Of a stretch of 61,172 nucleotides of DNA, positions 26,055-51,807 are shown one piece after another. The notes under the pieces are model-generated. The model was not told the DNA's origin. It saw nothing but the letters and a program-made list of their open reading frames with translations, and did no database searches. Both the position numbers and the translations under genes were made by a program. Positions within the stretch are counted from its first letter, which is position 1, and each line of letters opens with the position of its first letter. The stretch comes from Acidobacteriaceae bacterium (GTDB lineage Bacteria > Acidobacteriota > Terriglobia > Terriglobales > Acidobacteriaceae): assembly GCA_036267335.1 (NCBI GenBank), contig DATAWF010000175.1:1-61172 (forward strand), read 5' to 3'.

Positions 26055-29000
26055 CTACCGCGGATAAGGCAGCGGGATCACATCGCTCGGATCCAGGCCG
26101 AGTTCGATGAACATCTCCACCTGGAGTCGAGCGATCTCGGAATCTTTGGCGCTCTGTGTCAGGCCCTTGCTCGACTGAATCGACTTCTTGATGATTTCGA
26201 AAACCTCTCCCGCCGGGGCCGTGCTCTGTCCTCGCGCCTGCATAGCCTGAAACTCGCTCTTCCATCCGGCATCCATGGAGTAGTGGGGATCATGCTGCAG
26301 GAAGTTGGTGAAGGCCTCTTTTGGATCGTATCCGGGCACACCGCGCATCGCGGAGCGGGGCGCCGCGTGGGCCGCTTCCACACGGCCCGGCTTCGGCTTT
26401 CCCGTCTGGCCAAAGCCGTAAAGCAGTTGCGGATCGTTCGCCAGTTGCCGCTTGGCCGCGGAGCGCTGTCTCCACGGGAACAAGAGTTGGGGATCGCCGG
26501 CAGGCCCGATCTGGTTGACAGCCCGGTCGATCTCGCGCGCCGGAACGTTGCGCAGAGGATTGGTGGGAGTTCCGGAGCGGGGCGAAGGCTTCGGTTTCCT
26601 CTTGGGAGCGTTTTGCTCCGGGCCCGCTTCGATCACGGTGCCTTCCTCATCGCTGAAATCGATGTGCGTCACGCGGGCGCTGCCCGGTTGCGGCGAGCCG
26701 GTTCCAGACGCGGGTGTCCCGGCCGCGGCGTATCGGCTTTCGAGGAATTTTTCGTAATCCGAACCCGGCAGCCAGGGTTCGGTTTTGAAGGTCTTCTCGA
26801 CCGGCTTGCCGTCCAATTCCTGAAATTTCATGTAGTAGGGCTCCGCATCGCCGGGACGGAAGCCGATCTCGGTCACGCGGCCGGCGCCGGTTTGAGGATC
26901 GAGCCAGCGGATACGGGAGCTGACCGGGCCGACAGGCGATTGGCCTGTGATCTGCCCGTGCATCATCGCGTGGAAATCCCCGCCTGATGCGATGCGGGCC
27001 AGAGGATCGGCGCCGGGGTGATAGTGCTCGATGGGTTCCCAGTTGCGCCGCATGGAGGCATCGGAGAAGACGTCTTTTAAGCCGACCGACGTCTCCTTGC
27101 CCTGCACCACGATGAATTCACCGCTTGCCGGATCCCTGTAAATGCCCACTTCGCGCAGCGGATCGTGTGCGATCCAGCGATTGAATTCCTGATAGGCGCC
27201 GGCGCGATTGAGTTCGATCGCGGCCATGCCCACATCGTCGGCCCAGGGAATCTCGTCGACGCTTTTTGGAGCTTTTGCCGGAGCTTTGGAACCGGGAACG
27301 TTGGTCTCCTGATCCGGCGGAGTCGATGCCCGGCGAGTCCGCTGCCTGGTTTGCGTAACCGCGGAAGGCTCCGTCGGAGCGCCTTTGGTGCGCGCGCGCG
27401 GCGCGTTCTGCGGTTTACCGGTGCGAGATTCGACATCGGGCTGTGTGTCGACGTCGGTCGTATCGGCGACGACATCGCGCGGTTTGCTGCCGCCCTTCCC
27501 GCCGCTGGGGACACCCCCGTGTTCCTGCGCTGCCGCGGAGACGGTGTGGAACAAAACTCCAATGGCAAACTGTTTCGCCAGCTCTTCGATAAATTGGGCG
27601 TACGTCATCGGCTGAGCTTTGCCGCGCAGCTTGTCGAAGACCAGCCGGGCTACCGACTGAAATCCCGAAATCGTCCCCGACATGGCCGCCTCGACAGCAA
27701 ACTTCAGCGCGGGCCGGCCAAATTGAGCCGCCTCGGTTCCTAGCAACCGAGTCACCCCGGCTTCGCTTAGAACGCTGCCGAAACGCAGGGTCACCAACTG
27801 GAAGATCGTATCGAAGACGATGCCCGCCCAGTCGATCTGGTCCTGGATGCCCGCATCCACCAGCTTGCCTTCGATCGCCACTTCACCGAGCTCATGGGCG
27901 GCGATGCCCGTCACCGCCAGGCGTGTCACCGCCGCGCGGCCCGCGCCCGCAGCCGGCGCAAATACAATCGCGGCCAACAGTGCGGTGTCGATGATTCCAA
28001 CCAGAGTGGCGGTGTCGGTAGCCTCGCCGATCTTGAGCATCTGCTCGCCGGTCACGCAGACGATCTTGTTGTTGTCGTCGTACAGGCGGACCCGCACAAC
28101 GTCATCTGGCTTCAGGCGAATGCCGCCGGTAAAAACCTGCACCGGAAGAGTGCGTACTTCGTTATGAAAGTATGAGTTCCCGAAAACCGCATTCACGGGC
28201 TGGGAGACGAGGATAGAGTCTCCATCGCGGCGGGCAGTAATCGGTGCGACGTCGATCCGCCACAATCCCCTCGGCAAACGCAAAGGGAAGATCATCTCGT
28301 TGTCCGGGGCTCCAGCCTGGCATCTCGCTTTTTTTTGCTCGCCCGTAAGCTTGGCCGCCTCCTTCGTGCCGGCGAGCGGCGCGGCGGCTGCGACATCGCC
28401 TTTCGCGGCTCGCTGCTGCAAAACCTCGGCGGTGAACTTGGCAGTCCCCGAATCCGGTCCGAGCTCCGGCTTCTCGACCGCATCGTTGTGCAGGATTCGT
28501 ATGGTCTCGGTTGAAAGATGATTCAGCCGGCGGATCACGTCCGTTTTGTTGAATCCGTTGAGATATTCGCCCGCCCATCCGAAGTTCCCGAGCCGCATCT
28601 GCTTTTTGTAGTTGAAATCGAGATGGGTGTAGCGGGTAGCAATGGCAACCTGCGAATCCGGTCCCACTCCTTTGTTGCCGATCGCGCCCAGATAGATGTA
28701 GGAGATCTTTTCCGGATCATCCTTGAACGTATACAGAAATTGATTCATTTGCGCCGGGCTTAATCCATTGATCAACGCCGCAACCTCTTCCCATCGCGCC
28801 TCGTCCGCCTTGGCGTACGCTTCCCGGAAAATGGAACTCGATCCGTCGTAGGTCGCCGCGGCCTGACGGCGCAGGGTCCGACCCGCTTTGCCCTGTTGCA
28901 GAACGTGCGCCAGCTCGTGCGCGAGCAGATGGCGGCCATGCGATGTTTGCGGGCGATACTCGCCCGAGGCAAAGACCAGATGCGAGCCCACGGTATAAGC

Positions 29001-29612
29001 GCGAGCCTCGACCATGTGCGCCGACTCGGCCGCGCGGGCGTCGGTGTGCACTCGAACGTTGCTGAAATCCCGTCCGAAGCGTGGCTCCACAAAGGCTCGC
29101 GTCGCGGCGTCCAGCGGCTGCCCCGGAGTGCGAAGAACATCATGGACCAGCGGCGGCGCGTGCATCTGCGGCGCGTTTGGGCCAGCCTTGCGCTGGAGAG
29201 CTTCCTCTTTCTCATCAGCTTGCTTTGCCGCGCAGGCGGCACAGGGCGTGCCGTGCTCTTCGCAACTGCACATGCGCTGCACGGCAAGCGGGGAGCGGCC
29301 ATGTGCGATGGCGCGAGAGCCCTCGCGCACGATACTATCCGCAATGCGATCGGCCTCCATCTCGAGTGGATCGGAGACCGAGCCGACCGCCAGCTTTCGC
29401 TGCAGCCGCAGGCCATGGGGAAGGGAACTGCGATCGGGCCATCCCTGCGGGTCGATGGCGATCAGGCCGGCATGGGAGGGCAGGGCGCCCGTCGCCGTGT
29501 TTTGCCGGGCGCTTTTCTCCGCCGCCGGGATTCTCGATTGCCGGCGCGCAGGCTTCGCCGCCCGCTTTGCGGGGCGGACCGCCGTGACCGGACCTGGAGA
29601 AGACTCTGCCAT
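26055..29612 (-). CDS. Large multidomain DUF4157-type protein, putative eCIS cargo/effector
   Basis: LQRKLAVGSVSDPLEMEADRIADSIV ... RFGRDFSNVRVHTDARAAESAHMVEARAYTVGSHLVF...HLLAHELAHVLQQ is the zincin-like DUF4157 pattern. I moved the start to aa 79 of the ORF (MAESSPG), 1 nt after the upstream stop. It is the last gene of the CIS operon. Confidence 0.8.
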   Translation of the reverse strand: MAESSPGPVTAVRPAKRAAKPARRQSRIPAAEKSARQNTATGALPSHAGLIAIDPQGWPDRSSLPHGLRLQRKLAVGSVSDPLEMEADRIADSIVREGSRAIAHGRSPLAVQRMCSCEEHGTPCAACAAKQADEKEEALQRKAGPNAPQMHAPPLVHDVLRTPGQPLDAATRAFVEPRFGRDFSNVRVHTDARAAESAHMVEARAYTVGSHLVFASGEYRPQTSHGRHLLAHELAHVLQQGKAGRTLRRQAAATYDGSSSIFREAYAKADEARWEEVAALINGLSPAQMNQFLYTFKDDPEKISYIYLGAIGNKGVGPDSQVAIATRYTHLDFNYKKQMRLGNFGWAGEYLNGFNKTDVIRRLNHLSTETIRILHNDAVEKPELGPDSGTAKFTAEVLQQRAAKGDVAAAAPLAGTKEAAKLTGEQKKARCQAGAPDNEMIFPLRLPRGLWRIDVAPITARRDGDSILVSQPVNAVFGNSYFHNEVRTLPVQVFTGGIRLKPDDVVRVRLYDDNNKIVCVTGEQMLKIGEATDTATLVGIIDTALLAAIVFAPAAGAGRAAVTRLAVTGIAAHELGEVAIEGKLVDAGIQDQIDWAGIVFDTIFQLVTLRFGSVLSEAGVTRLLGTEAAQFGRPALKFAVEAAMSGTISGFQSVARLVFDKLRGKAQPMTYAQFIEELAKQFAIGVLFHTVSAAAQEHGGVPSGGKGGSKPRDVVADTTDVDTQPDVESRTGKPQNAPRARTKGAPTEPSAVTQTRQRTRRASTPPDQETNVPGSKAPAKAPKSVDEIPWADDVGMAAIELNRAGAYQEFNRWIAHDPLREVGIYRDPASGEFIVVQGKETSVGLKDVFSDASMRRNWEPIEHYHPGADPLARIASGGDFHAMMHGQITGQSPVGPVSSRIRWLDPQTGAGRVTEIGFRPGDAEPYYMKFQELDGKPVEKTFKTEPWLPGSDYEKFLESRYAAAGTPASGTGSPQPGSARVTHIDFSDEEGTVIEAGPEQNAPKRKPKPSPRSGTPTNPLRNVPAREIDRAVNQIGPAGDPQLLFPWRQRSAAKRQLANDPQLLYGFGQTGKPKPGRVEAAHAAPRSAMRGVPGYDPKEAFTNFLQHDPHYSMDAGWKSEFQAMQARGQSTAPAGEVFEIIKKSIQSSKGLTQSAKDSEIARLQVEMFIELGLDPSDVIPLPYPR

Positions 29613-29613
29613 C

Positions 29614-30528
29614 TCAAATTCCGCGAGCGCAGGCGCTTTGCGCCACGCGTCTGCAATGCCGGTCGAAGGCCGGATCGGTTGCGGCCATCCGTTGTTCCAG
29701 CCGCGAAGTTGTTTCGAAATCCGACTTCGCGTCCCCAAGCAGGTGGGTGAACCCGGCTTGTGCCGACCGCGAAGGCGAGTACGCCTCGCCCCAGTTCGGA
29801 AACAAATAGCGGATGCGCACGCCGCGGTGAGGGGAATCGGGCGCACTGCGGTGATAGTCGATGCATGCGGCCAGCAAATATTGCTCGAGGATCATGTTGA
29901 AGCCGCTCTTTTCCGCCAGTTCGCGCCACGCGCCTGCGTATGCGGGATTCATCGCGAGATCGATGGCGAGATTTGCAAAGTAGCGAAGAAATGTGACGTC
30001 GTTCCCGCCCAGGATTCCGCAGTTCTCTTCGCGAAAGGTTGCGCCGCCGCGTGAGCAAGCCCATTCCCACTCCACCGGCAGCGGGTGGCCATGGCGCGCG
30101 AACAGCGACTCGATCTCTCCCGGTCCGCACCATGCATTCGCCGCGGGGTGCTCTTCCGGGCATTGCGCGAAGACCGGTGCGGCCGTGAGCGAAGAGGGCA
30201 AAGCGCGCCACAAAAACACGTCTGTATCGAGATGCACGAAGGGGCGGTCCTGCAGGCTGTAGGCGACGAGCTTGCCCAGCGCCCACCAGCCGGGATCGGC
30301 ATCGCGCAACCGGTCAAGTTCGGTGCTCACATGGGTGAAGTCGAGTCCCAAATGATCGACGAGGAGAGTCTTGCCCGCGGAATCGGTCACCAGGACCGTC
30401 TCAGGGTAGTGCTCCCGCGCCCGGCTCAGCGAGAGTCCCCACGCCAGCAGGTGGTGGTGCGGCTCCCGCCAGATGCGTCCCTTGTATTCCCGGAATGGCT
30501 TGCTCCAGAATGACCAGACTGCGCGCAT
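29614..30528 (-). CDS. Hypothetical protein with a DxD-type motif (possible GT-A-like glycosyltransferase fold)
   Basis: 304 aa, MRAVWSFWSKPF..., with FVHLDTDVFLW (DxD). Tightly packed between the fibre gene (13-nt gap) and the effector gene (1-nt gap). Confidence 0.5.
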   Translation of the reverse strand: MRAVWSFWSKPFREYKGRIWREPHHHLLAWGLSLSRAREHYPETVLVTDSAGKTLLVDHLGLDFTHVSTELDRLRDADPGWWALGKLVAYSLQDRPFVHLDTDVFLWRALPSSLTAAPVFAQCPEEHPAANAWCGPGEIESLFARHGHPLPVEWEWACSRGGATFREENCGILGGNDVTFLRYFANLAIDLAMNPAYAGAWRELAEKSGFNMILEQYLLAACIDYHRSAPDSPHRGVRIRYLFPNWGEAYSPSRSAQAGFTHLLGDAKSDFETTSRLEQRMAATDPAFDRHCRRVAQSACARGI

Positions 30529-30541
30529 GGTGTTCCTCGGT

Positions 30542-33046
30542 TTACTTCAACGGCGGCGCGGGTACCGCGCCTCCTGTCACCGCAAGCGTGGGCTGCTGGC
30601 TGGCGGGCCGGTTTCCCAGCGCTCCGGAGACCGAGACCACTAGCGTGAAGGTCACGGTGGTGCCGGCGCCCGGTGAGTTGACGATTTGAATCGGAACCGT
30701 AACGGAGGTTTTGCCGGCTGCGACCTGCGCAGTCGAGGCGATGGTTGCGATGGTTGATCCGGTGCTGCTGGTGAGTTGAAGCGAGAGAGAAGTGGCCGAG
30801 CTCGGCGCATAGCTCAGCCCGATGACCGCGTTGATGGCGGTTACGGTGGTCGCCGCGGTTCCCGTTCCCGCTTGCAACCCAGACATGATCCCTTGATACG
30901 TGACGTTCACCGTCACTGCGTTTCCCGAGACCGGCGTCGTGTTGTCGAACAATTCGATTGCGACCGTCGTGACCAGCACCGAGGATGCAAGATAAAACCA
31001 GCCTTGGAAATCGCTGGCCTTGGCGCCAGTGCCGCTCGGCATATCCAGGCCGATGCAGGTGCTGCCGTCCCCGGCGCGGGTGGCGTCGTCGCCGAAGGCG
31101 CCGCCGTCCAGATACAGATTGCCGTTGGCTCCAGCCGCATAGATCGTATCTCCCAGGAGCCGGATGCGAACCCGGGCATATCCCGCGGGATTGCTCGCGC
31201 CGAGCAAAGTATTGAGCACTTCGTAGAGATAGTAGGCGTTGTAGAGTGCAGGTCCTTGGAGCGACGCGGGGGCGAGCCATGTCACCTTGGTTCCCGAAAC
31301 AGTGATGCCGCTTGGGGGATCGAGCGCAACCACCGTCCGGACGAACACATCGGTTCCCCCTTGGGCCCCGATTCCCCCGAAGGCCGGAGACCGCGGCACA
31401 TTGTCGCCGGCAAGCGGGCACTCCAGAGAAACCGCAAAGTTGGCTCCGCTCCACGGCGATGTCGCGGCCTGGTCGAGCGTAAGGAACAAGCCATTCTGCA
31501 ACAGCGCGTCGACCGTCATGATGTCGTCGTTTTGCCAGCTCACGCTCGCCACGTGCAGAGCATCGGCAGTTTGGTCCTGCGCCAGTGCTGTCAGCGGAGG
31601 AAAGAGCAGCCGGCAATCGCTGGTGATGAATTCACCATCGGCATGAAAGCTCGATTGATATTTGTCGCCGCGTTTCCAGCTGATGCAGGCCAGGGGAGCG
31701 TTGTAGATGGGCGTGTACTTGGCCGGTTGAAAGAGGTTGCCGTCGCTGCCGCAGGGCGGCCAGTCGATGGTGCCGCTCGCCGTGCGAGCCACAATGGTCC
31801 AATAGTCGCCGGGCTGATAGCTGCCCTTGCGAAATGTGACCTCGATGCCGTTCTCGAGCGCGATAGGTTTTGAGGAAAGCGCGATGCCTTGCGCGGTGGC
31901 GCCGGAACCGCTCTGGTCCCAGCGGCGCATGCGCGCGTTCTGTCTCGTGTCGATGCCGGTGACGGGAGAGCTCAAAGTCACCTGCAGCGCCCCTGGGCCT
32001 AGCGAGGAGATCTGGTAGAGCTGCCCCGCTTGATTCGGCGTTTCGCCGAAGAGATAGGTGTCATCGGAAAGCTCCACCCATTGTCCGGGCTGGAAGCCGA
32101 GGTTCACATCGGGTCCCAGGCTGCTGGCTGTGACCACGGCTCCGCTGAGCTGCGTGACCGCGGCCACCACCGAGCCGTTCTCTCTCGACCATTTGAGCGT
32201 GGCTGTGTCGAGCGTGCCCGGGCTGTGAATCTCAACCCGGTAAAGTTGATTTTCGAGGCCCTGATATCCAGCCGATGGAACCGGGGAGCATCCGCATTCG
32301 GTGTTTCCCGTGCCGGTATCGGCGCTCATTGACCCGGTGCGGGAAACCAGAGTTTCGCGGTAGAGCGCCTGGCAGCAGCTAGAGAGCTGGGAGGTGGGGT
32401 CGACGTAGTTGCCTGTGCTCGTATCCGCTGGCGCGGAGACCGCGCTCGCTTGGGCGATCGGCCGGACTTTTTCGAGATCCTCTCCCGTGATTGTGTTATC
32501 CGTAGGAGCGGACGGCGTGCTGTTCTCGCTTTCATTGCTGCCGCCGGTGACCTGGCCGATCACGCGCCATACCGTTTGCAGGCGGGCGGTGGTGTCGGCC
32601 TGCCCCAGGGCCGGCTCGCGCAAGCAGCAGTCGTCGAGCGCCGTGACCAGCCGTTCCCAAACCTGGAGCGTGAGCTCGCCGGTAACCTGGCCGCTGCCGT
32701 TTGCCACTGCCGAGAGCAGTTGCAACGCGCTGTAGCTGGGATTAATCAGATAGGGCTGATCGTCATACGAAAGCCGCGCGTCATTCTCTACCAAGAGGCC
32801 TTCGACGTAATAGCGCCCGGTTGCGATGTTGATTCCGGCGCCGGCAATCGAAATCTCGAAACCGGCGTCGCCGATCGGGCCGCCGTAGGCGCCGATCACA
32901 TCGACATTCGTCGTGTCGCGCAGCCAGCCTTCGATGAACGCGCCTTCGTTCCCATCGGAATCGAGCGATGGCCGCCCTTGCTGGTCCAGGACTGCGGTGT
33001 AATTTTTTGCCGGGTTGAACCGAATCCTGCTGAAATCGCCTCTCAT
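30542..33046 (-). CDS. Putative tail fibre / receptor-binding protein (N-terminus of the DUF6519-like type)
   Basis: 834 aa. The N-terminus MRGDFSRIRFNPAKNYTAVLDQQGRPSLDSDGNE is a pattern I associate with CIS-linked DUF6519 proteins. The C-terminal part is T/S/V/A-rich and Ig-like. It sits after the baseplate wedge genes. Confidence 0.55.
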   Translation of the reverse strand: MRGDFSRIRFNPAKNYTAVLDQQGRPSLDSDGNEGAFIEGWLRDTTNVDVIGAYGGPIGDAGFEISIAGAGINIATGRYYVEGLLVENDARLSYDDQPYLINPSYSALQLLSAVANGSGQVTGELTLQVWERLVTALDDCCLREPALGQADTTARLQTVWRVIGQVTGGSNESENSTPSAPTDNTITGEDLEKVRPIAQASAVSAPADTSTGNYVDPTSQLSSCCQALYRETLVSRTGSMSADTGTGNTECGCSPVPSAGYQGLENQLYRVEIHSPGTLDTATLKWSRENGSVVAAVTQLSGAVVTASSLGPDVNLGFQPGQWVELSDDTYLFGETPNQAGQLYQISSLGPGALQVTLSSPVTGIDTRQNARMRRWDQSGSGATAQGIALSSKPIALENGIEVTFRKGSYQPGDYWTIVARTASGTIDWPPCGSDGNLFQPAKYTPIYNAPLACISWKRGDKYQSSFHADGEFITSDCRLLFPPLTALAQDQTADALHVASVSWQNDDIMTVDALLQNGLFLTLDQAATSPWSGANFAVSLECPLAGDNVPRSPAFGGIGAQGGTDVFVRTVVALDPPSGITVSGTKVTWLAPASLQGPALYNAYYLYEVLNTLLGASNPAGYARVRIRLLGDTIYAAGANGNLYLDGGAFGDDATRAGDGSTCIGLDMPSGTGAKASDFQGWFYLASSVLVTTVAIELFDNTTPVSGNAVTVNVTYQGIMSGLQAGTGTAATTVTAINAVIGLSYAPSSATSLSLQLTSSTGSTIATIASTAQVAAGKTSVTVPIQIVNSPGAGTTVTFTLVVSVSGALGNRPASQQPTLAVTGGAVPAPPLK

Positions 33047-43446: not shown

Positions 43447-43458
43447 CGCCTGTTCTCC

Positions 43459-44082
43459 TCACGACTGCTGTGCGAGCGATTCCTTGCTCATCTGGTAAGA
43501 CATGTAGAGCGATCCGGCCGGCGTCAGGAAGCCCACATCGTTGACGTTCAGCACGCGCATCGTCAGCGAGACTTTGGCGCGAATCGGATTGAGCTTGGGA
43601 TCGAAGGCTTCTTCCGTGATCTCGATGCCCGTCAGGCGCACCGGCGTCACACGATTGGCTCCCCAGATGAAGACGGTGAGATTGGAAGACATGGGGAGAA
43701 TCTCGATCGTTCCTACGAGCGAGAGAACTTCATTGGCGATCAGGATCCCGCTCGACGGATAGACCAGGAGCTCGAGCACGGCCAGTTGGGGCGAGATCCC
43801 GAGGTTCATGGTGGTCGGGTCGGAGGCCGCAAGCTGATCGGTGGCGTCGATTTCGACATCGCAAGTGATGGTCTCGATCGGCGGACCTTTCAGCCGCAGC
43901 ACCTCGGTGCGATCCGGTTGATCGCCCACGCTCTGCGGCTGCAGGCTTCGCCGGATAGTTTCGGGGTTGTACTGGAGCTGGATGGTATTGAGCGGAATGC
44001 CGGTGTTTGGCTCCAGCACCAGGATGGCTCCCTTTTGCAGCAGCGGTGAGACGTTAGGCACGGCGGTTTCCTCCCTTGCCAA
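43459..44082 (-). CDS. Tube-like / tube-initiator protein (second tube-family member)
   Basis: 207 aa. ...LTVFIWGANRVTPVRLTGIEITEEAFDPKLNPIRAKVSLTMRVL resembles the C-terminal pattern of CIS tube-family proteins. The start is uncertain (29-nt overlap with the upstream small gene; alternative at V8). Confidence 0.55.
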   Translation of the reverse strand: MAREETAVPNVSPLLQKGAILVLEPNTGIPLNTIQLQYNPETIRRSLQPQSVGDQPDRTEVLRLKGPPIETITCDVEIDATDQLAASDPTTMNLGISPQLAVLELLVYPSSGILIANEVLSLVGTIEILPMSSNLTVFIWGANRVTPVRLTGIEITEEAFDPKLNPIRAKVSLTMRVLNVNDVGFLTPAGSLYMSYQMSKESLAQQS

Positions 44083-44329
44083 TCAGTTGCGAGCGTATTG
44101 CCGAGGCGACCTGCGCCGCGGCCTGGGCAGCGTCGGCGGGGGAGCGCATGCGCCCGGCGTCAATCGATCGAAGCTTGCGTGCCCCCTGCGCGAAAACATG
44201 AGGATCGAGATCGTGCGCCAGAGAAGCGAGCTCCGCTTCGAGAGCGCGAACGAACTGGTGCTTGGCCGATCCCGGAAGTCCGTCGACGATGAGGCGGCCG
44301 ATCTCGAGATGCAGAACATTGCGGCTCAT
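44054..44329 (-). CDS. Small hypothetical protein (91 aa) of the CIS operon
   Basis: ATGA overlap with the ATPase stop when started at MSRNVLHLEIGRLIV. No recognisable family. Confidence 0.45.
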   Translation of the reverse strand: MSRNVLHLEIGRLIVDGLPGSAKHQFVRALEAELASLAHDLDPHVFAQGARKLRSIDAGRMRSPADAAQAAAQVASAIRSQLIGKGGNRRA

Positions 44330-46377
44330 TCCCACCCCCTCGACTCGGCTGCGGTAAGAGGCTTCTCCAACTTGGCGTATTCAGTACGCGCCGCTGAGAG
44401 CACATGCCGCATGCCGATAGGCTGCTTCTCATCCGCGGCCAGGAACGCGGCAAGCAATGCGATGTTGCGGATGATGCCGCCGGTGACGTTCAGCTGCGCC
44501 AGGCGCGGAAAGTCGAGTCCATGGGTGGGCGCCTGGGCCGGGAAGACTTTGCGCCAGATGCGCTCCCGGCTTTCGGCTTCGGGAAAGGGGAACTGCACCG
44601 CAAAGCGCAATCTGCGCTGAAAGGCCGTGTCCATCGACTTCTGCATGTTGGTCGTGAGGATTGCGATGCCGCGATAGGACTCCATTTTCTGCAGCAGATA
44701 CGCGACCTCCAGATTCGCGTAGCGGTCGCGGCTGTCGCGAACTTCGCTGCGCTTGCCAAACAGGGCATCCGCTTCATCAAAGAGCAGAATCGCGCCGCTG
44801 CGCTCGGCGGTATCGAAAATGCGGCGCAAATGCTTCTCCGTCTCTCCGATGTATTTGCTGACCACCGTCGCAAGGTCGATCTGATAAAGATCGCGATCGA
44901 GCTCGCGCGCCAAAATGCCTGCCGCCATCGTCTTGCCTGTTCCGCTGTGCCCGGAGAAGAGCGCGGAGAGGCCGTGACCCAGGGTGTAGCGGCCGGCGAA
45001 ACCCCATTCGCCGAAGACCACGGAGGAGTGGCGGGCGTGAGCGACGATCTGGCGCAGAATGCCCATCTGCCCGTCTGGAAGAATCAGATCCTCCCACGAC
45101 GCCAACAAGTCGGACCGCCGCGCAAGATCGTCGAGGGAGCGGCGGGAGGCGTCGCGGCATAGCTGCCATGCGACCTGGGCTAGGTTGTTGTTCTCCGGCG
45201 TGGCCTCAGCGCCCAAGCGATCCAAGCCGCCCAAGCCGTCTAAGCCGCCCAGGCGATCTAAGCCGCCCAAGCGATCATGGATGGCCTCTGCTGTCTGAGA
45301 GATTTCCGCGCCATTCATTTCAAAGGCACGCGCCATTGCATCGAGCGAGCCGTTCATGGCCGCCGCGACGGGGCCCAGCCGGTTCTGCCAGAGAGCTTTT
45401 CTCTCTGCCACGGTCATCGAAGGCAGCAGGATGCGAACGCCGCTCAGCCGCTCGGCCGGAGTGCCGGCCTCCACGTCCACGGCGACCGGAGCATCCACAC
45501 GCGCCAGCCACGCAGCCAGCCGCTGCGGATCGTCCACTCTTGCCGTCTGGACGAGCAATGCCAATGGCGAAAGCGCCGCTTCCCGCATGAGGCGCCGCGC
45601 CAGCCGTTCGCGTTCTTCGGTCGTATCGGGCAGATCCGCTGCATCGAGACTCCATGGCCGCATCCCCGCTTCCCGGCAAAGCATGCGGAAGAAGGCGATG
45701 CGATCCGCCGGACTGGCTCCCACCAGGAGCACCCGATCGTTCCTGCGCGTCCATCGCCGCGCCGCGGCCTGTGCAGCCAGGCGCATTTCATCGGTGGCCT
45801 CCGCCGGTAGCAGCTCCTCTTCCGGCAGCGGATGCATTCTGAGGTCCAGCCGCTCGTCGCTTGCAGGAACGTCGAGAAGGTACTGAAGAATCCGCTCATC
45901 CAGCGTGAGGGAAGCGTGCATCAGCGGCCCCGCGCCAACTTCAATCAGCTCCCAGTACCGCAGAGGACGCTGGCGGCTGAGCACACTCCAGTGGGGGGAG
46001 GGAAGAATGCGTGCCGCCATTCCGAAGCTAGGCGATGGAAGAGGCGCGCCGGCCGCTTGCGCCGCTAAACCCGCACAAGCCGCCGGAAATCTTTCATCGA
46101 TGGCAAAGCCCGCGCACAACAGCAAAATGTCCGCTTCGAAGTCGCTCAGGCCAAAAGTCGCGCTCAGCTTCTCGATCGTCTCCCACCTTCCTTCGCCATT
46201 GCCGCCGTCTTGCTCCATCCGGCCGGCTTCCGCTCGGGAAGAGGCGAAGGAATCGGGTTCGCCGGAAAAATCAGTGATCCCAAGCATCGTTTCCGGCAGC
46301 CGATCCTCCAGATAGCCGAGAATCCGGTCGAGCTCCGTCCACAGCGAGATCGCTTCCATATGCCGTACCGGATTCAT
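44326..46377 (-). CDS. AAA+ ATPase (Afp15/Pvc15 analogue)
   Basis: Walker A GHSGTGKTMAA, Walker B ILLFDEADALF and the CDC48-like SKYIGETEKHLRRIF. ATGA overlap with the cap gene. I moved the start to aa 10 of the ORF. Confidence 0.92.
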   Translation of the reverse strand: MNPVRHMEAISLWTELDRILGYLEDRLPETMLGITDFSGEPDSFASSRAEAGRMEQDGGNGEGRWETIEKLSATFGLSDFEADILLLCAGFAIDERFPAACAGLAAQAAGAPLPSPSFGMAARILPSPHWSVLSRQRPLRYWELIEVGAGPLMHASLTLDERILQYLLDVPASDERLDLRMHPLPEEELLPAEATDEMRLAAQAAARRWTRRNDRVLLVGASPADRIAFFRMLCREAGMRPWSLDAADLPDTTEERERLARRLMREAALSPLALLVQTARVDDPQRLAAWLARVDAPVAVDVEAGTPAERLSGVRILLPSMTVAERKALWQNRLGPVAAAMNGSLDAMARAFEMNGAEISQTAEAIHDRLGGLDRLGGLDGLGGLDRLGAEATPENNNLAQVAWQLCRDASRRSLDDLARRSDLLASWEDLILPDGQMGILRQIVAHARHSSVVFGEWGFAGRYTLGHGLSALFSGHSGTGKTMAAGILARELDRDLYQIDLATVVSKYIGETEKHLRRIFDTAERSGAILLFDEADALFGKRSEVRDSRDRYANLEVAYLLQKMESYRGIAILTTNMQKSMDTAFQRRLRFAVQFPFPEAESRERIWRKVFPAQAPTHGLDFPRLAQLNVTGGIIRNIALLAAFLAADEKQPIGMRHVLSAARTEYAKLEKPLTAAESRGWE
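45211..45276. repeat. In-frame 18-bp tandem repeat (about 3.7 copies) inside the ATPase gene
   Basis: GCCCAAGCGATCCAAGCC / GCCCAAGCCGTCTAAGCC / GCCCAGGCGATCTAAGCC / GCCCAAGCGATC. This encodes (LGGLDR/G)n on the minus strand. Confidence 0.85.
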
Positions 46378-47639
46378 GCGCTCACCTCGATTTGCGGCAG
46401 CCACTGGCCATAGGTTGGGCTCCCGCTGGTCGTGTCCAGGGCCAGGCGGCTTTGCGCGCCATCCACCTCGACCCGTAGAGGAAAAGTCCCTACTGCAACC
46501 GTGGAAGGCACAGGTACGGTGATCTCAGCAGAGCTGGCCGGCCCTGCCAACGGGCGATCCGGTACCGGGATGGCCTGGTCGCCGATGTAGACCACGGCCT
46601 TCTGCATCACTCCCACCTGAGGTGAAACTGTCAACGTGAGAGCAGAGCCCTGGGTGGCGGTGATGGGCGGAGTCGCCGCCGGCTGAATCGTGGGAACTAG
46701 CTGGAAGGGCACAGGACTGGACGAAAAGCCGGGATGCGGCGTGGGCGACGACGGATAGGTCACGCTGCGAAGAGCTCGCACACTGTGGGTGCCGGCGAAA
46801 AGAGAGGTCGGCACGACGACGCGGAGTACCGAGCCTTGCACTGTGGCTGGAGCCAGGCCCGCGCCGCCGTCGAAGGAAACTTGCGTGGCAGCCGGGGTAT
46901 CGCCCAGGAAGTTGCTCCCGTTGAGCGTCAGCGTGCCGCCGCTTGTCACCATCGTCGGCGAGACGGTATCGATCACGGGAGTGATGAGCGGCAGGGCAAG
47001 AACCGACCGGCGCTGTACCGGCAGATTCGAGGTATAGCTCTGCGTATCCTGAATAACCACCACGGAGATTTGGTAGGAGGTCGTGGGTCGATAGCTGGTC
47101 TGGAAAGCGGTCCAAAGGCGATAGATCTCTTCGGTGGTCAAGGCCTCGGGCGTGATGCGAATGTGCTCGACCTGATTGCTGAGCGTGCTGGCGGAGACGA
47201 GCTGCTGCTCGGTGGGAACGGGATTCACGGTGAGCAAATCGGCAAGCGCTTGCTGAATCGTGGTGCGCGGAACCACCGGCGTATCGTGGAAGACCTTCAT
47301 CGCCCAAGCCAGCAGAATTTCGGCGTCGAACGGCTGGCTGCCGTAGGCGGTGACCAGATAGTGCAGGTTGATTGCGAGCGGCGGGTTGGTGAGACGGTTG
47401 CCGCCGGCTCCGGAGGAGGGAAGATCGAGATTGCGCAGCGCTGAATTGATGCTCGCGTAATAAAGGAACAGGTTGATCTGCGCGGCCTCGCTCGACCCGG
47501 TGGCGATGAGATCGGGTGCGATGTTCGTGATGCCGGCCGCCGCGCCCAGAATCCCCGAGGGCCCGCCGCTTGAAAGCGCCGTGGTTAGCAGCGATTTCAA
47601 AACCGCGCTCACGCCCGCTACCGCGAGATAGTCGCTCAT
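46374..47639 (-). CDS. DUF4255-type tail terminator/cap protein (Afp16/Pvc16 analogue) with C-terminal IPT/TIG-like domains
   Basis: MSDYLAVAGVSAVLKSLL......INLFLYYASIN..LRN is the N-terminal DUF4255 pattern. The C-terminal PVIDTVSPTMVTSGGTLTLNGSNFLG..QVSFDG is IPT/TIG-like. Confidence 0.8.
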   Translation of the reverse strand: MSDYLAVAGVSAVLKSLLTTALSSGGPSGILGAAAGITNIAPDLIATGSSEAAQINLFLYYASINSALRNLDLPSSGAGGNRLTNPPLAINLHYLVTAYGSQPFDAEILLAWAMKVFHDTPVVPRTTIQQALADLLTVNPVPTEQQLVSASTLSNQVEHIRITPEALTTEEIYRLWTAFQTSYRPTTSYQISVVVIQDTQSYTSNLPVQRRSVLALPLITPVIDTVSPTMVTSGGTLTLNGSNFLGDTPAATQVSFDGGAGLAPATVQGSVLRVVVPTSLFAGTHSVRALRSVTYPSSPTPHPGFSSSPVPFQLVPTIQPAATPPITATQGSALTLTVSPQVGVMQKAVVYIGDQAIPVPDRPLAGPASSAEITVPVPSTVAVGTFPLRVEVDGAQSRLALDTTSGSPTYGQWLPQIEVSA

Positions 47640-48355
47640 GACGAGGCTCCGGGCTTGCGGTTGAGAAACTCCTCCAGCGTCACCCCTGGACGGAAGGGCT
47701 GCGCTTTCGCTTGACCCTGGGGAGCGCTCGGCGCGCGAAGCTCGATACTGCCGATCGCGATGTGGATCTCCGTTCGTTGTTCGGTTTCGACAGCCTGCTG
47801 CGGCTGTGATTCCGGCTTTGGCTCGGCCCGCTCCGGCCTCGGCGATCGATTGCCCGATGGCGCAGGCATCCGGGCTGTGTCGCGCAGACCTGGCGCCGCC
47901 TTCTGCGCCTGCGCTTCAACCGCAACAAGTTTCAGCGGCGGCCTCTCTTCCGGGTTCGATTCCGGGCCAAGGCTCGGCGCGGAGGCGTGCGGCAATGCAG
48001 CCGCCGTCAACTCCCTTGAAGCTCTCGCTGGGCCTTCTTGCGAAGCCGCTCCGGAAATCAACCCGGATGGGTTTTCCTCTCCTAAGATTTGTGAGCCCGG
48101 CAATGGCGGAGGTACGCCGGCCTGCTCCCCAACAGGATTTGCGATCGGCAGCCGGGCGGGCGGCCGCTCCGCGGAAGCAGGAGTGTGGGATATCGGCGGA
48201 GCGGCTGCCTTGCGTGGTTGGAGCGCGGCCTCAGCCACGTCTTCGAGCTGTTGCGGATGCAACGCCCGCCGCGTCTGCTGGGAATTGACGAGCGGCTCAA
48301 TCCCTTGCAGCTCCCCACGGCTGCGCTGCAACATCCGTCCTAAGACCGTGCTCAT
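47636..48355 (-). CDS. Pro/Ala-rich hypothetical protein, candidate tape-measure/length-determining analogue
   Basis: 239 aa from MSTVLGRML (ATGA overlap with the upstream stop). It is mostly low complexity, with an ordered-looking C-terminus TEIHIAIGSIELRAP...GVTLEEFLNRK. The assignment rests on synteny only. Confidence 0.45.
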   Translation of the reverse strand: MSTVLGRMLQRSRGELQGIEPLVNSQQTRRALHPQQLEDVAEAALQPRKAAAPPISHTPASAERPPARLPIANPVGEQAGVPPPLPGSQILGEENPSGLISGAASQEGPARASRELTAAALPHASAPSLGPESNPEERPPLKLVAVEAQAQKAAPGLRDTARMPAPSGNRSPRPERAEPKPESQPQQAVETEQRTEIHIAIGSIELRAPSAPQGQAKAQPFRPGVTLEEFLNRKPGASS

Positions 48356-49062
48356 GCCTGCAACATCTCCAAGTAAGCGGTTCGTCTTGCCGAAGTCATG
48401 GAGAGAATCGACTGCTCGCTCCATCCGTGAGCCCGTGCAATCGTGTGAACTTCCGCGAGCAGCCGGCGCGCTGCCACGTTGACCTCGCGCCACAAGTAGC
48501 GTTCGATATCCAGATCGAGAACTTCAGCAGCGCCGCAGCAGTTGCATTCAAATGTGCAGCGAATTTCAGCCGATGCGTTGAGGCGTTCGAAGCGAGCAAG
48601 CCAGCCGGGCTGCGGCGAATCGAATTCCTCCGCATCCGATCGAGTGACAGTGCGGGTCAAGAGAGTGGCCTGCGCCGCTGCATCATCGCCGGCCTCGAGC
48701 GCGGCGATGAGATCCGCGGTGGTCGCCGGCCGCATCCGCCAGGTGTGAGCCTCTTCTGCCCATGCCTCTTCCCCTGGAATTTGCAACTGCTCTTCGAGTT
48801 GCCGTGTGCTTATCGAGAATTCGAGCTGGGAGCCGCATCTTCGGCAGATGGTGAATCCATCGAGATGGTCCTGGAAGCTGATCCGGTGCAGCTCGAAGAG
48901 CAAAACATTGCGCCGGGCCAGAGGTTGCGCTGCGAGCGAGGAAAGGGTTTCTCCGGGAAGAGCGGTTTCGAGGAGCCGCAGAGCGCGCCACGGCTCCGCG
49001 TTCTCGCGGCCTCGCTCCCATGCGGTAAGAAGTCTCTCTCCGGTAAGTGCGTGCATTGCCAT
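48352..49062 (-). CDS. Hypothetical Cys4 protein, candidate assembly chaperone
   Basis: 236 aa with CRRCGSQ ... CTFECNCCG, a split zinc-ribbon-like pattern. It sits between the tube gene and the P/A-rich gene. No family recognised. Confidence 0.55.
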   Translation of the reverse strand: MAMHALTGERLLTAWERGRENAEPWRALRLLETALPGETLSSLAAQPLARRNVLLFELHRISFQDHLDGFTICRRCGSQLEFSISTRQLEEQLQIPGEEAWAEEAHTWRMRPATTADLIAALEAGDDAAAQATLLTRTVTRSDAEEFDSPQPGWLARFERLNASAEIRCTFECNCCGAAEVLDLDIERYLWREVNVAARRLLAEVHTIARAHGWSEQSILSMTSARRTAYLEMLQA

Positions 49063-49219
49063 ACGCCTTTTCCCTTCGCTTTCAGGACAGCACCGCCCCT
49101 GGGCAGCAGGAAGAAGAGCCGCGCGGCTATGCTGCGCGTGCAGGGGATGGTCGGACGAATTGCTGTTGATGTGCCTCGCTGTTGGCAGCGCCGTCCGCGT
49201 GTGCGGGCGGCCCCGGCCG

Positions 49220-49741
49220 TTATGCGTGGGTTGAGGTGAAGCTTGGCTCCGTCGGCTCCGTCACGGAGACATCCCGCTCCCAGCCCTCGTTTTCCAGAAT
49301 GAGGTGCTGGATGGCGACCGCGTTGGCGTCGAGATCGGGCAGCGCCTGAAATTCCGAGACCCACGCGCGATAGATCTTGTAGCTGATCGCGAGTTGGCCG
49401 GCTTCGTTGTAAAAATCGAGAATGAGGTCTTTGCGAAAATCGGCGAGCGATACCTCGGCGCCCAGCGAGGCTCCAATCTGCCACACCTTGGCGGCCCAGG
49501 CCTCGAAGGCCAGGTCATGGGTGACGCCCCGCTCCAGAGTGATCGGTCCGAATTCCGTTCGCCCTGGAGACTTGCGGCTGGTGCTGGGGTCGCCGCCCTC
49601 GCGGTGCTTGACAACCTCCGTAGTGCGCTTTAGCGCCGAGCACTTGCTCACTCCGGCCACATACTGGCCGTCCCATTTCAGACGGAACTTGAAATTCTTG
49701 TACGGATCGAAACGTTGCGCGTTGACGACGAATTCTGTCAT
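49220..49741 (-). CDS. Tail tube protein (T4 gp19-like; Afp1/Pvc1 analogue)
   Basis: MTEFVVNAQRFDPYKNFKFRLKWDGQYVAGVSKCSALKRTTEVVKHREGGD....RKSPGRTEFGPITLERGVTHD. GGGAGGAG lies upstream of the ATG. I moved the start to aa 60 of the ORF. Confidence 0.9.
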   Translation of the reverse strand: MTEFVVNAQRFDPYKNFKFRLKWDGQYVAGVSKCSALKRTTEVVKHREGGDPSTSRKSPGRTEFGPITLERGVTHDLAFEAWAAKVWQIGASLGAEVSLADFRKDLILDFYNEAGQLAISYKIYRAWVSEFQALPDLDANAVAIQHLILENEGWERDVSVTEPTEPSFTSTHA

Positions 49742-49782
49742 GGCTCCTCCCTTGTGGCCTTCCGTGGGATTGCGGGTTCGAC

Positions 49783-51807
49783 TTACGACCCGGCTTGACC
49801 GGTGAGCTGCTCGATCTGGATAACGACGAACTCTGCCGGTTTCAGGGGGGCAAAACCTACCAGGATGTTGACGATGCCCTGGTCGATGTCGTCCTGAGTG
49901 GTGGTTTCGCTGTCGCACTTGACGAAGTAGGCCTGATTGGAAGTCACTCCCTGGAAATAGCCCTTCTTGAAGAGCGAATCCATAAAGGAGCCGACGTTCA
50001 GGCGGATGGCGGCCCAGAGCGGCTCATCGTTGGGCTCGAAGACCACCCATTTCGTCCCGCGGTACAGGCTCTCTTCGAGAAAGAGGGCCGTGCGCCGCAC
50101 GGGAACGTACTTCCATTGGTTGGTCATGGCATCGGCGCCCACCAGAGTGCGCGATCCCCAGAGAACAGCGCCGTACAGCGGAAAGGTGCGGAAGCAGTTG
50201 AGGCCCAGGGGATTCAGGCTTCCGTTCTCCTGGTCGTTCAACTGGTAGGTCATGTTCTGCACGCCGTTCAAAGTAGCGCCGATGCCCGCCGGAGCCTTCC
50301 ATACGCCGCGCGTGGAATCGGTGTTGGCGAAGACGCCGGCCACGACTCCGGAGGGCGCGAAGGTCCGCAGTTGCCCGTTGTTCAGGGCGTCGGCCAGCCG
50401 CAAGCGAGGCCAGAAGGCCGCGCCGTTGGGATCGACGACGCCGATCGTGTTGCTCTTCCAATCGACTGCGCCGGCGACGGTGATCACGTTCGGCGGCGGA
50501 TCGAGCAGCAGCATCGCGCGCCGCTGATCGCACAAGGCGATGGCGGCGGAGTAGATCTCGACCGGGTTGATATTCGGGTCGGCGGCATTCGGATCGCTGG
50601 GGTTGGCTCTCGCCGCCTCCGGAATGCTCAACAGGTTGAAGAGATCGACTTTGAGCAAGGCATAGATTCCGCTGAATGCGAGCGGATCCCCAATGAGGTC
50701 GCCGCTTTGCGGCAGTCCCGAGGGAGCGGTTGCCGCGGTCGAAACAAGGCCGAGGGTGGAGGTGTTCGTTCCCGTCCCGAGAGCGTAGTGGGCTGCATTG
50801 CTATAGGTGGGCGTCTTCAAGCCCAGCGCGGTGGCGGCATCGTTGCCCGATGCGGGAGAGCCGAAGGTGACCACGGTATCGGTCTGGTTGGGCAAAAGCG
50901 CGTTCACGCGAATTCCCGTGCCGGTGCCGTTTGGCGCAGCCGCACAACTCACGGTCGCCCCCGGCTGGTTGACCATCAGCCAGTTGTTGAGCGCCTGTTG
51001 TACCTGTGCGGCCAATCCGGAAACGGTTTGCGCAATGGTTGTGCCGTTTCCGATGATTTTGATGGTGGGTGCGGTGGACGGACCGCCAGGCCAGGAAAAT
51101 GTGAGGCTGCAATCAGCGTTCGCGGTAGCCGTGCCGCCGCCGAGCGCCGAGTCCACGCTACTCGCGCCCGTGATCGTCAGGGGTGTGCCCAAAATTCCGG
51201 TCGCCTGAAGAGCGACCGCGGGCGAGGGAAGATTTGAAGTCACACTGACAAGCTGAGAGCCATTGTCGGGGTCGTTGACGACGGCCGTTACGAAGTTCTG
51301 CTTGGTCGAGTCCAGGGTGACGGAAGGGAAATATTCCGAGGTGTTGTCCGCGAGATCGGTCACGGTGATGTTGAAGGCCAGCGGATCTCCCGTCGCAGTC
51401 GAGAGGTCGAGTCCCTGAATGTCGATGTCGATCAGCAGTTCGCCGTTGGCCCACTGCCCGCTGCTCAAGGCAGTAAAGGTCAATTCACCGGAGCCTATCG
51501 CGACCTTCGCGGCCGGCACGGTTCCAGGCGTCGATGGGTAGTGCATGGGCGATCGCACCACGTAGGCTTGGGAGCCGCCATTCTGAAAAAACTGTTGCAC
51601 CGCGTAGCTGAGTTCGCTGTTCGAAGCCAGGCCGCCGTAGAGCCGCTCGAAATCGGAGAAGCTGTAGAGGGCCTGTGCGCGATTGTCGATGCCTCGCGCG
51701 GTGTAGCCCACAAAGGCCGCGATGGAGGTAGCGACACCGGTAATCGCATGGACCGGGCTGGGGAGTTCCTGGATATAGACACCCGGATAGGTGTACGAGG
51801 TAGACAT
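49783..51807 (-). CDS. Contractile tail sheath protein
   Basis: MSTSYTYPGVYIQELPS....TGVATSIAAFVGYTARG is the classic sheath N-terminus, and the C-terminus reads ...VNILVGFAPLKPAEFVVIQI. GGAGG lies upstream. I moved the start to aa 19 of the ORF. Confidence 0.95.
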   Translation of the reverse strand: MSTSYTYPGVYIQELPSPVHAITGVATSIAAFVGYTARGIDNRAQALYSFSDFERLYGGLASNSELSYAVQQFFQNGGSQAYVVRSPMHYPSTPGTVPAAKVAIGSGELTFTALSSGQWANGELLIDIDIQGLDLSTATGDPLAFNITVTDLADNTSEYFPSVTLDSTKQNFVTAVVNDPDNGSQLVSVTSNLPSPAVALQATGILGTPLTITGASSVDSALGGGTATANADCSLTFSWPGGPSTAPTIKIIGNGTTIAQTVSGLAAQVQQALNNWLMVNQPGATVSCAAAPNGTGTGIRVNALLPNQTDTVVTFGSPASGNDAATALGLKTPTYSNAAHYALGTGTNTSTLGLVSTAATAPSGLPQSGDLIGDPLAFSGIYALLKVDLFNLLSIPEAARANPSDPNAADPNINPVEIYSAAIALCDQRRAMLLLDPPPNVITVAGAVDWKSNTIGVVDPNGAAFWPRLRLADALNNGQLRTFAPSGVVAGVFANTDSTRGVWKAPAGIGATLNGVQNMTYQLNDQENGSLNPLGLNCFRTFPLYGAVLWGSRTLVGADAMTNQWKYVPVRRTALFLEESLYRGTKWVVFEPNDEPLWAAIRLNVGSFMDSLFKKGYFQGVTSNQAYFVKCDSETTTQDDIDQGIVNILVGFAPLKPAEFVVIQIEQLTGQAGS

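Follow-up and report, generated by a model that had tools for sequence, protein, structure and literature searches.

Extracellular contractile injection systems (eCIS) fall into two lineages, I and II, with six subtypes, and the order of their genes is subtype-specific (Chen 2019, PMC6899500). The afp8 gene of subtypes IIa, IIb and IIc is split into gp27 and gp5 open reading frames (ORFs), two copies of afp11 occur in IIa and IIc, PAAR is missing from IIb only, divergent afp12 and afp13 genes are kept in IIa and IIb, and afp14 is generally absent from lineage II (PMC6899500). The haloarchaeal IIa system is membrane-bound, being located at the cytoplasmic membrane, and secretes DUF4157 proteins; the haloarchaeal group represented by a Haloferax larsenii cluster has been placed in clade IIa (PMC11566945). 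In Streptomyces the IId system is found in the cytoplasm, with effectors that carry a single transmembrane (TM) domain (PMC10066040). Among the acidobacteria, eCIS loci have been catalogued in Acidobacterium strain C40 and Acidobacteria bacterium Mor1 (PMC8213781, supplement). Here, we describe a 19-gene cluster on contig DATAWF010000175.1 of an Acidobacteriaceae bacterium (assembly GCA_036267335.1), of which a stretch of 61,172 nucleotides was analysed as a whole and is referred to below as the window. We present evidence that the cluster is very probably a complete contractile injection system (CIS) of eCIS lineage II, located in an Acidobacteriaceae chromosome.

The 19 genes, numbered here G1 to G18 with G6b following G6, all lie on the minus strand and run from window position 51807 down to 26055, with no opposite-strand gene between them. 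A first-pass annotation of this DNA had described about 20 co-directional genes; the shared direction stands and the count is corrected to 19. Its end coordinates were exact, 51807 being the sheath ATG and 26055 the last base of the final gene's stop codon. Coding sequence occupies 25,449 of the 25,753 bases (98.8%), and the GC content of third codon positions is 0.65-0.80 in all 19 genes. Six junctions are the 4-nt ATGA overlaps that had been noted at the outset, three further junctions overlap by 8-10 nt, and the largest intergenic gap is 157 nt. Gene starts were picked from stop-to-stop ORFs by Shine-Dalgarno context and by agreement in length with homologues, and a GGAGG lies 7 nt upstream of the sheath ATG at 51807. 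A scan with the sigma-70 consensus called no promoter upstream of the sheath gene, and matches in a sigma-54 promoter search were at chance level. A promoter-like element, TTGACT-17 nt-TAAGCT (51964..51992, minus strand), lies about 155 nt upstream of the sheath ATG and was left uncalled by the consensus scan because its -10 hexamer is weak. Two related loci keep both hexamers at the same spacing, among them one (L033) whose region has otherwise diverged; as a lead, the element may be the operon promoter, which would give the transcript a 5' leader of about 155 nt.

Profile matches are called above threshold here when they exceed the curated Pfam or NCBIfam cutoffs. By this measure the sheath, tube, gp25 and baseplate-J assignments of the first-pass annotation all pass, as do the Pvc16_N cap, the AAA+ ATPase, the CIS_tube initiator and the gpV spike. 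The sheath gene, G1 (49783..51807, 674 amino acids (aa)), encodes a Cis2/Afp2-like protein that matches PF17482 (expectation value (E) 7e-12) and PF04984. Against solved sheaths it scores 236 bits with 8bky/9gtp, 229 with 8bl4/9gts and 224 with 9ezm. The first two pairs, named in the search output solely as phage tail sheath family proteins, we take to be from Streptomyces CIS, and 9ezm presumably is haloarchaeal; the search output gives no organism. The Afp and PVC sheaths score below these (Pvc2 161 bits, Afp3 138), as do the All3325 sheath 7b5h (137) and 7adz (133). The inner tube is encoded by G2 (49220..49741, 173 aa; Cis1/gp19-like, PF06841 E 7e-39).

In correction of the order first annotated, the cap does not follow the tube directly, since G3 and G4 intervene. 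G3 (48352..49062, 236 aa) encodes a Zn-ribbon protein with CxxC...CxxxCxCC motifs that resembles T4 gp51, a baseplate-hub assembly family. The match to PF12322 is made through an orthologue, the window protein reaching E 0.32 and the 54%-identical L033 orthologue 37.9 bits (cutoff 24.5). At positions 12595-13464 of L034, the closest relative, the in-frame G3 consists of residues 118-236 alone, the called gene is 102 aa long and an opposite-strand ORF covers the remainder; in this otherwise intact operon, G3 may have been disrupted or rearranged. G4 (47636..48355, 239 aa) encodes a disordered Pro/Ala/Gln-rich protein for which profile searches gave no family match. When its orthologues are aligned, the central part proves hypervariable and about 50 aa at the C-terminus form a conserved block (TEIHIxIGSIELRAP...FRPRVTLDEF), and we infer that G4 is a candidate length-determining or tube-lumen protein.

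G5 (46374..47639, 421 aa) encodes the Cis16/Afp16-like cap, or tail terminator, and joins a Pvc16_N domain (E 1e-43) to an Ig-like TIG domain (E 6e-7); a sequence search of the PDB gave no match to it. G6 (44326..46377, 683 aa) encodes the Cis15/Afp15-like AAA+ ATPase (PF00004 E 3e-24, with the PF22977 winged helix). It contains one CDC48-type AAA module; its PDB matches are of the VCP/CDC48 type and confined to residues 472-610, and no Clp/Hsp100-named chain is among the best 60. The cap and ATPase stand in the middle of the operon, as first annotated and unlike in Afp/PVC, the order being sheath, tube, cap and ATPase followed by the baseplate. After the ATPase comes G6b (44054..44335, 93 aa), a small conserved gene that is called at the same position in L033 and L034 and is 48-94% identical; its product matched no family in a profile search. 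G3, G4 and G6b are three small lineage-specific genes, and together with G17 and G18, described below, they had gone unnamed in the first inventory, which was to that extent incomplete. The C-terminal block of G4, TEIHIAIGSIELRAP (47636-47800, minus strand), resembles the N-terminus of G6b, VLHLEIGRLIVDG (44270-44335, minus strand), neither of which matches any family; the two could be a shared strand-type docking motif.

The baseplate module begins with G7 (43459..44061, 200 aa), a tube-like protein or tube initiator resembling the N-terminus of Cis7 that matches PF19266 CIS_tube at 28.3 bits (cutoff 27); it is 79-92% identical in most acidobacterial loci and 48-57% identical in the subgroup L027, L028, L030 and L035. 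G8 (43081..43446, 121 aa) encodes a LysM-like baseplate protein of gp53/gpX type, with a match to phrog_7145 (E 9e-9), weak matches to gp53 and Tail_X, and, by BLASTP, similarity (E 2e-5) to the LysM motif in the protein annotated as LysM in Haloferax. The hub and the spike are adjacent separate ORFs, a split of the afp8 type. G9 (41952..43088, 378 aa), the gp27/gpD-like hub (Cis8a), has weak matches at E about 0.007-0.02, among them VgrG_rel (E 0.0085) and the PDB VgrG chain 9rce_F (E 0.007); a characteristic C-terminal motif aligns with Haloferax VgrG/Pvc8 (E 0.017), and G9 sits, like its counterpart in the Haloferax larsenii plasmid cluster (L036), between LysM and gpV. G10 (41417..41923, 168 aa), the gpV/gp5-like spike (Cis8b), contains a gpV OB domain (PF04717, E 6e-20). 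The putative spike tip, G11 (41097..41414, 105 aa; Cis10), is PAAR-like, with a weak match to PAAR_motif (E 0.1). It agrees in position and size with the annotated PAAR gene of L036 and is 54-82% identical across loci; a BLASTP comparison with the Haloferax PAAR protein was non-significant.

Next come the wedge protein G12 (40688..41065, 125 aa; gp25/GPW, Cis9, PF04965 E 4e-15) and two baseplate J/gp6-like proteins. G13 (38238..40691, 817 aa; Cis11a) matches PF04865 (E 1.5e-5), the baseplate-J chain 9gtp_1K (E 2e-14) and also T4 gp6; G14 (35422..38241, 939 aa; Cis11b) matches TIGR02243 (E 5e-65), the baseplate wedge families phrog_219 and phrog_6, and 9gtp_1K (E 8e-8). We take 9gtp_1K to belong to a Streptomyces CIS structure, an origin that the search output does not give. 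G15 (33116..35425, 769 aa) is a gpI-like, Cis12-like baseplate protein whose one direct match is Mu Gp48 (E 0.11). Its family comprises 3980 representative clusters, and among 41 diverse members nine match TIGR02242 ('phage tail protein domain'; best E 5e-7), so that the assignment is made through family members; G15 also occupies the slot of the L036 'phage tail protein'. Profile searches of G15 and of the fibre candidate G16 against PDB sequences returned nothing useful, and their equivalence to Cis12 and Cis13 is therefore not demonstrable from solved structures. For the LysM, hub, PAAR-like and gpI-like genes (G8, G9, G11 and G15), the first calls hold in operon position, which agrees with the annotated Haloferax cluster, and receive weaker profile or pairwise scores.

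Each of the eight functions that Chen 2019 lists as core to eCIS has a gene here: tube, sheath, LysM/Afp7, Afp8, gp25, Afp11, ATPase and cap. The marker Pfam families of the eCIS catalogues, Pvc16_N, CIS_tube, eCIS_core/DUF4157 and DUF6519, are present as well. A sheath and gp19-type tube are linked to a DUF4255/Pvc16_N terminator, an AAA+ ATPase and a baseplate core, and they are unlinked to head, packaging or type VI secretion system (T6SS) membrane-complex genes, as judged from Pfam scans of 30 flanking ORFs, the larger ORFs in the remainder of the window. Two features are those of IIa and IIc, namely separate gp27-like and gp5-like ORFs (with the weak matches of G9) and two afp11 copies (G13 and G14). 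The presence of divergent afp12 and afp13 homologues, in the form of the gpI-like G15 (through TIGR02242) and the DUF6519 fibre gene G16, favours IIa over IIc by gene content. The first-pass annotation had described a complete contractile-tail operon with a gene order unlike that of Afp/PVC, and both the profiles and the gene order bear this out. The novelty that it implied was overstated; the layout is normal for catalogued eCIS lineage II. Its observation that hub and spike, and tube initiator and LysM protein, are split was correct, and these traits are no oddity: the split of hub and spike is described for IIa/IIc (PMC6899500), and both splits are seen in the Haloferax cluster. Since the traits it had flagged match the descriptions of IIa and IIc in Chen 2019, every feature singled out as unlike Afp/PVC had already been published.

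The haloarchaeal IIa cluster on the Haloferax larsenii plasmid has the same order of tube-like protein, LysM, VgrG/Pvc8, gpV, PAAR, gp25, J, J and tail protein, with a DUF4157 gene after the tail protein and with sheath, tube, cap and ATPase nearby. The characterised example of subtype IIa is the CIS of Halogeometricum borinquense. Shared with the haloarchaeal IIa systems are the association with, or secretion of, DUF4157 proteins and a single-AAA ATPase and DUF4255 cap beside the sheath-tube module. In Haloferax, however, the cluster opens with the baseplate module and has its cap and ATPase on the other strand, whereas here all genes form one co-directional operon. Identity between the two sheaths is low, at 40%, and restricted to the C-terminal third. 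Beyond the haloarchaeal set, the acidobacterial locus has the gp51-like Zn-ribbon protein, the disordered protein, the DUF6519 fibre and the predicted DUF6734 enzyme; for the 6-TM anchor gene that is conserved in haloarchaea it has no equivalent.

The subtype Ia systems of Serratia entomophila (antifeeding prophage, Afp) and Photorhabdus (Photorhabdus virulence cassette, PVC) share all eight core functions with this cluster, and an AAA+ ATPase and a Pvc16-type cap are found in them too. They differ from it in having three sheath paralogues and two tube proteins, a VgrG (Afp8) and a tube-LysM protein (Afp7) that are each fused, a single J protein, the adenovirus-like fibre Afp13, the tape measure Afp14, and the ATPase and cap at the 3' end. 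The Streptomyces CIS (IId), like the acidobacterial locus, lacks a conventional tape measure; unlike the system described here it has a single VgrG and a single J protein, is fibreless, uses effectors with one TM helix and has a cytoplasmic role in cell death (PMC6899500, PMC10066040). The closest plasmid-borne relative, an uncharacterised cluster on the Novosphingobium resinovorum megaplasmid pSA1, has a sheath that is 48-49% identical over its full length and the same order of sheath, tube, G3-like gene, cap, ATPase and then G7 to G14. It differs by an insert of about 8 kb with a DUF4157 gene between ATPase and baseplate, an arrangement also found in L027, L028 and L030. A canonical T6SS is rejected: there is a single 674-aa sheath rather than TssB and TssC, and one CDC48-type AAA module rather than ClpV. 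No TssJLM, TssA/F/G/K or ClpV family protein was found in the operon or among the scanned flanking proteins, in keeping with the first-pass view, based on TssJLM/ClpV-type genes and now extended to TssB/C, that the locus is not a T6SS.

The three genes at the 3' end are G16, G17 and G18. G16 (30542..33046, 834 aa) is the fibre or receptor-binding candidate and matches PF20129 (DUF6519) over residues 1-434 with E 3e-44; in its alignment invariant positions are dense in the N-terminus and the C-terminus is variable. Under the name eBAP5, DUF6519 has been defined as a domain that anchors eCIS fibres to the baseplate, with 658 genes encoding it (PMC12923769). The fibre candidate of the first annotation is this protein, with an N-terminal baseplate anchor and a variable C-terminus.

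G17 (29614..30528, 304 aa; DUF6734, PF20508 E 7e-48) is the last conserved gene of the cluster and follows G16 in 24 related loci; we found no mention of DUF6734 in the literature searched. An AlphaFold (AF2) model built from 24 sequences has a mean predicted local distance difference test score (pLDDT) of 86 and a predicted template modelling score (pTM) of 0.86. A Foldseek search of the PDB with this model gave 125 matches at E <= 0.001, of which the best 50 are mostly glycogenin (GT8), UGGT (GT24) and GT6 proteins, with a best E of 4e-5 and TM-scores of just 0.40-0.48. The residues D101xD103 and H262xxG265xxK268, which we take to be the DxD and HxxGxxKPW signatures of GT8 enzymes, are invariant in the 24 sequences. 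G17 is therefore predicted from the model to be a GT8-like glycosyltransferase of the GT-A fold. The modelled protein begins directly in the first beta-strand without a disordered leader, and G17 is better conserved across related loci (59-69% identity) than the fibre (43-58%); homologues from other phyla, such as that of Dyella, are about equally similar (66%). Because it lacks a disordered leader and is better conserved than the fibre, a maturation role such as fibre glycosylation is favoured over cargo, and it is more probable that G17 modifies the fibre or another part of the particle.

G18 (26055..29612, 1185 aa) encodes an eCIS_core (DUF4157) protein (PF13699, E 2e-30) with, as predicted from its sequence, the architecture of a polymorphic toxin. 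A disordered N-terminus (residues 1-165) precedes an HExxH domain (166-243, with HELAH at 232-236), the middle region contains an Ala-rich hydrophobic stretch at about 530-700 that is shared with homologues, and the last 175 aa or so are private to G18. The region after DUF4157 is shared by just six other proteins among 5.8 billion, and these six end in differing C-terminal domains (Ntox1, DUF3626). The DUF4157 protein at the position of G18 is 401-520 aa long in the seven loci with a fully delimited ORF. DUF4157 is an established marker of eCIS cargo (PMC8213781), and by analogy G18 is likely to be particle cargo. When four fragments of G18 were scanned against Pfam, no toxin domain was recognised. 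A model of the C-terminal 390 aa, made from a three-sequence alignment, was poor (pLDDT 50), and Foldseek returned nothing below E 0.04 for it. By eye, residues 864-883 contain a JAMM/JAB-like E...HxHPx10Sx2D motif, and a Foldseek match to BRCC36 has E 0.04 and probability 0.44; we treat a JAMM/JAB-like identity of this region as a lead, not a finding.

The G1 sheath has 1778 homologues, the best 120 of which are 57-96% identical. The named relatives, those at 70-96% identity, are from Silvibacterium, Terracidiphilus and Acidobacteriaceae, in agreement with the acidobacterial host proposed in the first-pass annotation. A scan for G13 in one genome per species yielded 31 loci, with which five further loci were compared. 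The 31 are mostly from Acidobacteriaceae metagenome-assembled genomes and include the cultured Edaphobacter aggregans DSM 19364 (L019); a minority are labelled Gammaproteobacteria, Bradyrhizobium or Actinomycetota. Wherever the genes were found in the 31 and the five further loci, the order from G1 to G17 is unchanged, also in Silvibacterium acidisoli and Dyella subtropica, and this 17-gene core occurs without phage genes in many species. Beyond the DUF6734 gene, at the cargo end, Silvibacterium acidisoli has no DUF4157 gene and Dyella has three, and in L027, L028, L030 and Novosphingobium pSA1 DUF4157 genes stand between the ATPase and the baseplate module. Upstream of the cluster are cys (sulfate assimilation) genes in L033 and a transposase and extra genes in L034, whose sheath is 96% identical. 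Since upstream contexts differ between close relatives and the cargo end varies, the cluster behaves as a movable island composed of a conserved 17-gene core and variable cargo. When L034 positions 1-10000 are set beside window positions 51808-53473, the same amidohydrolase and TonB-receptor neighbours are seen, but about 7 kb before the sheath gene in L034; this interval contains a DDE transposase, a 1057-aa CarboxypepD_reg-type protein and two unknown genes. Close sheath relatives were not found among the viral contigs of IMG/VR, in a search that reaches close relatives only.

The first-pass annotation knew of no characterised acidobacterial CIS. We too found no paper on an experimentally characterised one in the literature searched, but loci of this phylum had already been catalogued (PMC8213781). 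In the genus table of Geller 2021, as we read it, four Edaphobacter genomes have no eCIS (PMC8213781), yet a 28-kb scaffold of E. aggregans DSM 19364 contains G1 to G17. The clade may be undercounted in the published catalogues, or their set did not include this genome.

The flanking ORFs encode ordinary chromosomal functions: a PadR regulator, a MacB/FtsX permease, TonB-dependent receptors with CarboxypepD_reg domains, IlvD, an amine oxidase, an amidohydrolase, an ECF sigma factor and anti-sigma factor, BlaR/BlaI-type proteins, a RES-domain toxin and a NusG paralogue. None of the 30 encodes a capsid, portal, terminase, integrase, holin or endolysin, and T6SS membrane-complex proteins are likewise missing from them and from the operon. 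Phage head genes adjoining the locus were what the first-pass annotation had named as evidence against its reading of a non-prophage, and the scan found no head, integrase or lysis gene. GC content in 2-kb windows is 0.61-0.64 across the operon and mostly lower, 0.56-0.62, in the flanks. A tRNA-Arg(CCT) gene (52336-52412, plus strand), called by ARAGORN and Rfam, lies 530 bp upstream of the sheath gene. It is followed after 131-157 bp by a degenerate second tRNA-like copy (about 52469-52573, plus strand) that neither program called. The acceptor and T arms of the copy are 94-100% identical to those of tRNA-Arg(CCT), and it is preceded by the same leader; it has an insertion of about 30 nt in the D loop that forms a GC hairpin and a 9-nt anticodon loop, TTCCCCGCA. 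The copy may be a pseudo-tRNA or the remnant of an integration site beside the CIS island. The RES-domain protein (20270-21127, plus strand; E 3e-26) has a 147-aa ORF (19800-20243, plus strand) just upstream. A 240-aa NusG-domain protein (216-938, minus strand), 25 kb from the cluster, is possibly a specialised NusG/RfaH-type paralogue; RfaH-type regulators are reported beside some eCIS operons.

That a contractile particle is encoded here is well supported. The gp19-type tube would lie inside the contractile sheath, with the Pvc16-type cap and the Afp15-type AAA+ ATPase. In the baseplate, gp25, the two gp6/J paralogues and the gpI-like protein would surround a hub of gp27-like, gpV and PAAR-like proteins; tube-initiator and LysM proteins are encoded besides. 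From work on Afp/PVC and related systems we infer how such a particle would be assembled, loaded, triggered and used for toxin delivery. Assembly on the baseplate would take place in the cytoplasm; the ATPase would aid assembly and cargo loading, the DUF4157-tagged toxin G18 would be the cargo, and the DUF6519 protein G16 would be the fibre that recognises the target. Triggered through the fibre, the baseplate would rearrange, the sheath contract, and tube and spike pass through the target envelope and deliver the toxin.

The sequence cannot tell whether such a particle is released, anchored or cytoplasmic, as the first-pass annotation had stated, and the characterised relatives in lineage II differ in mode. 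We put the chances that it is a released extracellular particle at about even. Release is favoured by the fibre, whose anchor is conserved and whose tip varies, and by the conserved genes, none of which encodes a convincing transmembrane protein. Contact-dependent firing by a membrane-anchored, T6SS-like apparatus from the producer into a neighbouring cell, as in the haloarchaeal IIa system, is an appreciable but rather unlikely alternative. In gene content and in the order of modules, no characterised system comes closer than the membrane-bound haloarchaeal cluster, and no lysis cassette was found beside the operon; but the 6-TM haloarchaeal anchor has no counterpart among the 19 proteins, which contain no convincing transmembrane helix save for the hydrophobic stretch within the toxin. 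The variable-tipped DUF6519 fibre, moreover, suits free, target-seeking particles, and the Gram-negative acidobacterial envelope would require a trans-envelope complex, none of which is encoded here.

We consider it improbable that the cluster encodes an intracellular device for stress-induced death or lysis of the producer, as in the Streptomyces IId system and possibly in the thylakoid-anchored CIS of cyanobacteria. The best-scoring solved sheaths, 8bky/9gtp and 8bl4/9gts, would fit this proposal if they are, as we presume, of Streptomyces origin, and the long hydrophobic Ala-rich segment of G18 recalls the single-TM effectors of the cytoplasmic Streptomyces system. The Streptomyces clusters, however, are fibreless with a single VgrG and a single J gene, whereas the acidobacterial cluster has a fibre, two J genes and separate hub and spike genes, and the swapping of C-termini among G18 relatives (Ntox1, DUF3626) is typical of antagonistic toxins directed against other cells. 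A defective prophage remnant or R-type tailocin is very improbable and is rejected: every structural protein is homologous to myophage tail proteins, the tRNA-Arg gene and its degenerate copy lie 530 bp upstream and operon GC exceeds that of most flanking 2-kb windows, but the eCIS-specific Pvc16_N cap, AAA+ ATPase, CIS_tube and DUF4157 proteins are present, the scanned flanks contain no head, portal, terminase, integrase, holin/endolysin or tape-measure/chaperone gene, IMG/VR yielded no close sheath relatives, and the same core of 17 genes is kept free of phage genes across many species.

Several points weigh against a complete lineage II particle that is released. The cluster is called IIa-like from its gene content, not from a phylogeny. 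The hub, PAAR and gpI assignments draw on weak or transitive matches, an hhalign comparison of the G15 alignment with the Haloferax 'phage tail protein' gave no match, and no tape-measure gene is recognisable in the cluster. The predicted glycosyltransferase activity of G17 depends on a model of moderate TM-score (0.40-0.48) together with motifs that we take to be those of GT8 enzymes. Both the particle and its expression are predictions read from the genes. Lysis or release genes were not found among the 30 flanking ORFs, which calls for caution on release, and neither of the two characterised lineage II systems, the membrane-bound IIa and the cytoplasmic IId, is a classical released eCIS.

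The lineage II layout (PMC6899500), the existence of acidobacterial eCIS loci (PMC8213781) and the DUF6519 fibre class (PMC12923769) were already known, and the acidobacterial cluster leaves the current picture of eCIS unchanged. The gain for eCIS biology is modest and consists of a further lineage II clade, the first functional prediction for DUF6734 and a rare DUF4157 toxin architecture. We suggest only tentatively, as a proposal more apt to fail than to hold, that this mainly Acidobacteriaceae clade is a distinct functional variant of lineage II, in which the core DUF6734 protein glycosylates the fibre or another component or is a universal cargo, and in which length control by the mostly disordered G4 protein, with its conserved C-terminal strand, replaces a helical tape measure. 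The 17-gene core is present in two cultured strains, Edaphobacter aggregans DSM 19364 and Silvibacterium acidisoli, and the released, anchored and cytoplasmic alternatives are therefore directly testable. Few soil bacteria are as abundant, or as hard to work with, as the Acidobacteriaceae, and to our knowledge almost nothing is known of how they antagonise their neighbours. We know of no released lineage II system; if the particle described here is also released, it would be the first, and would come from among the most abundant soil phyla.

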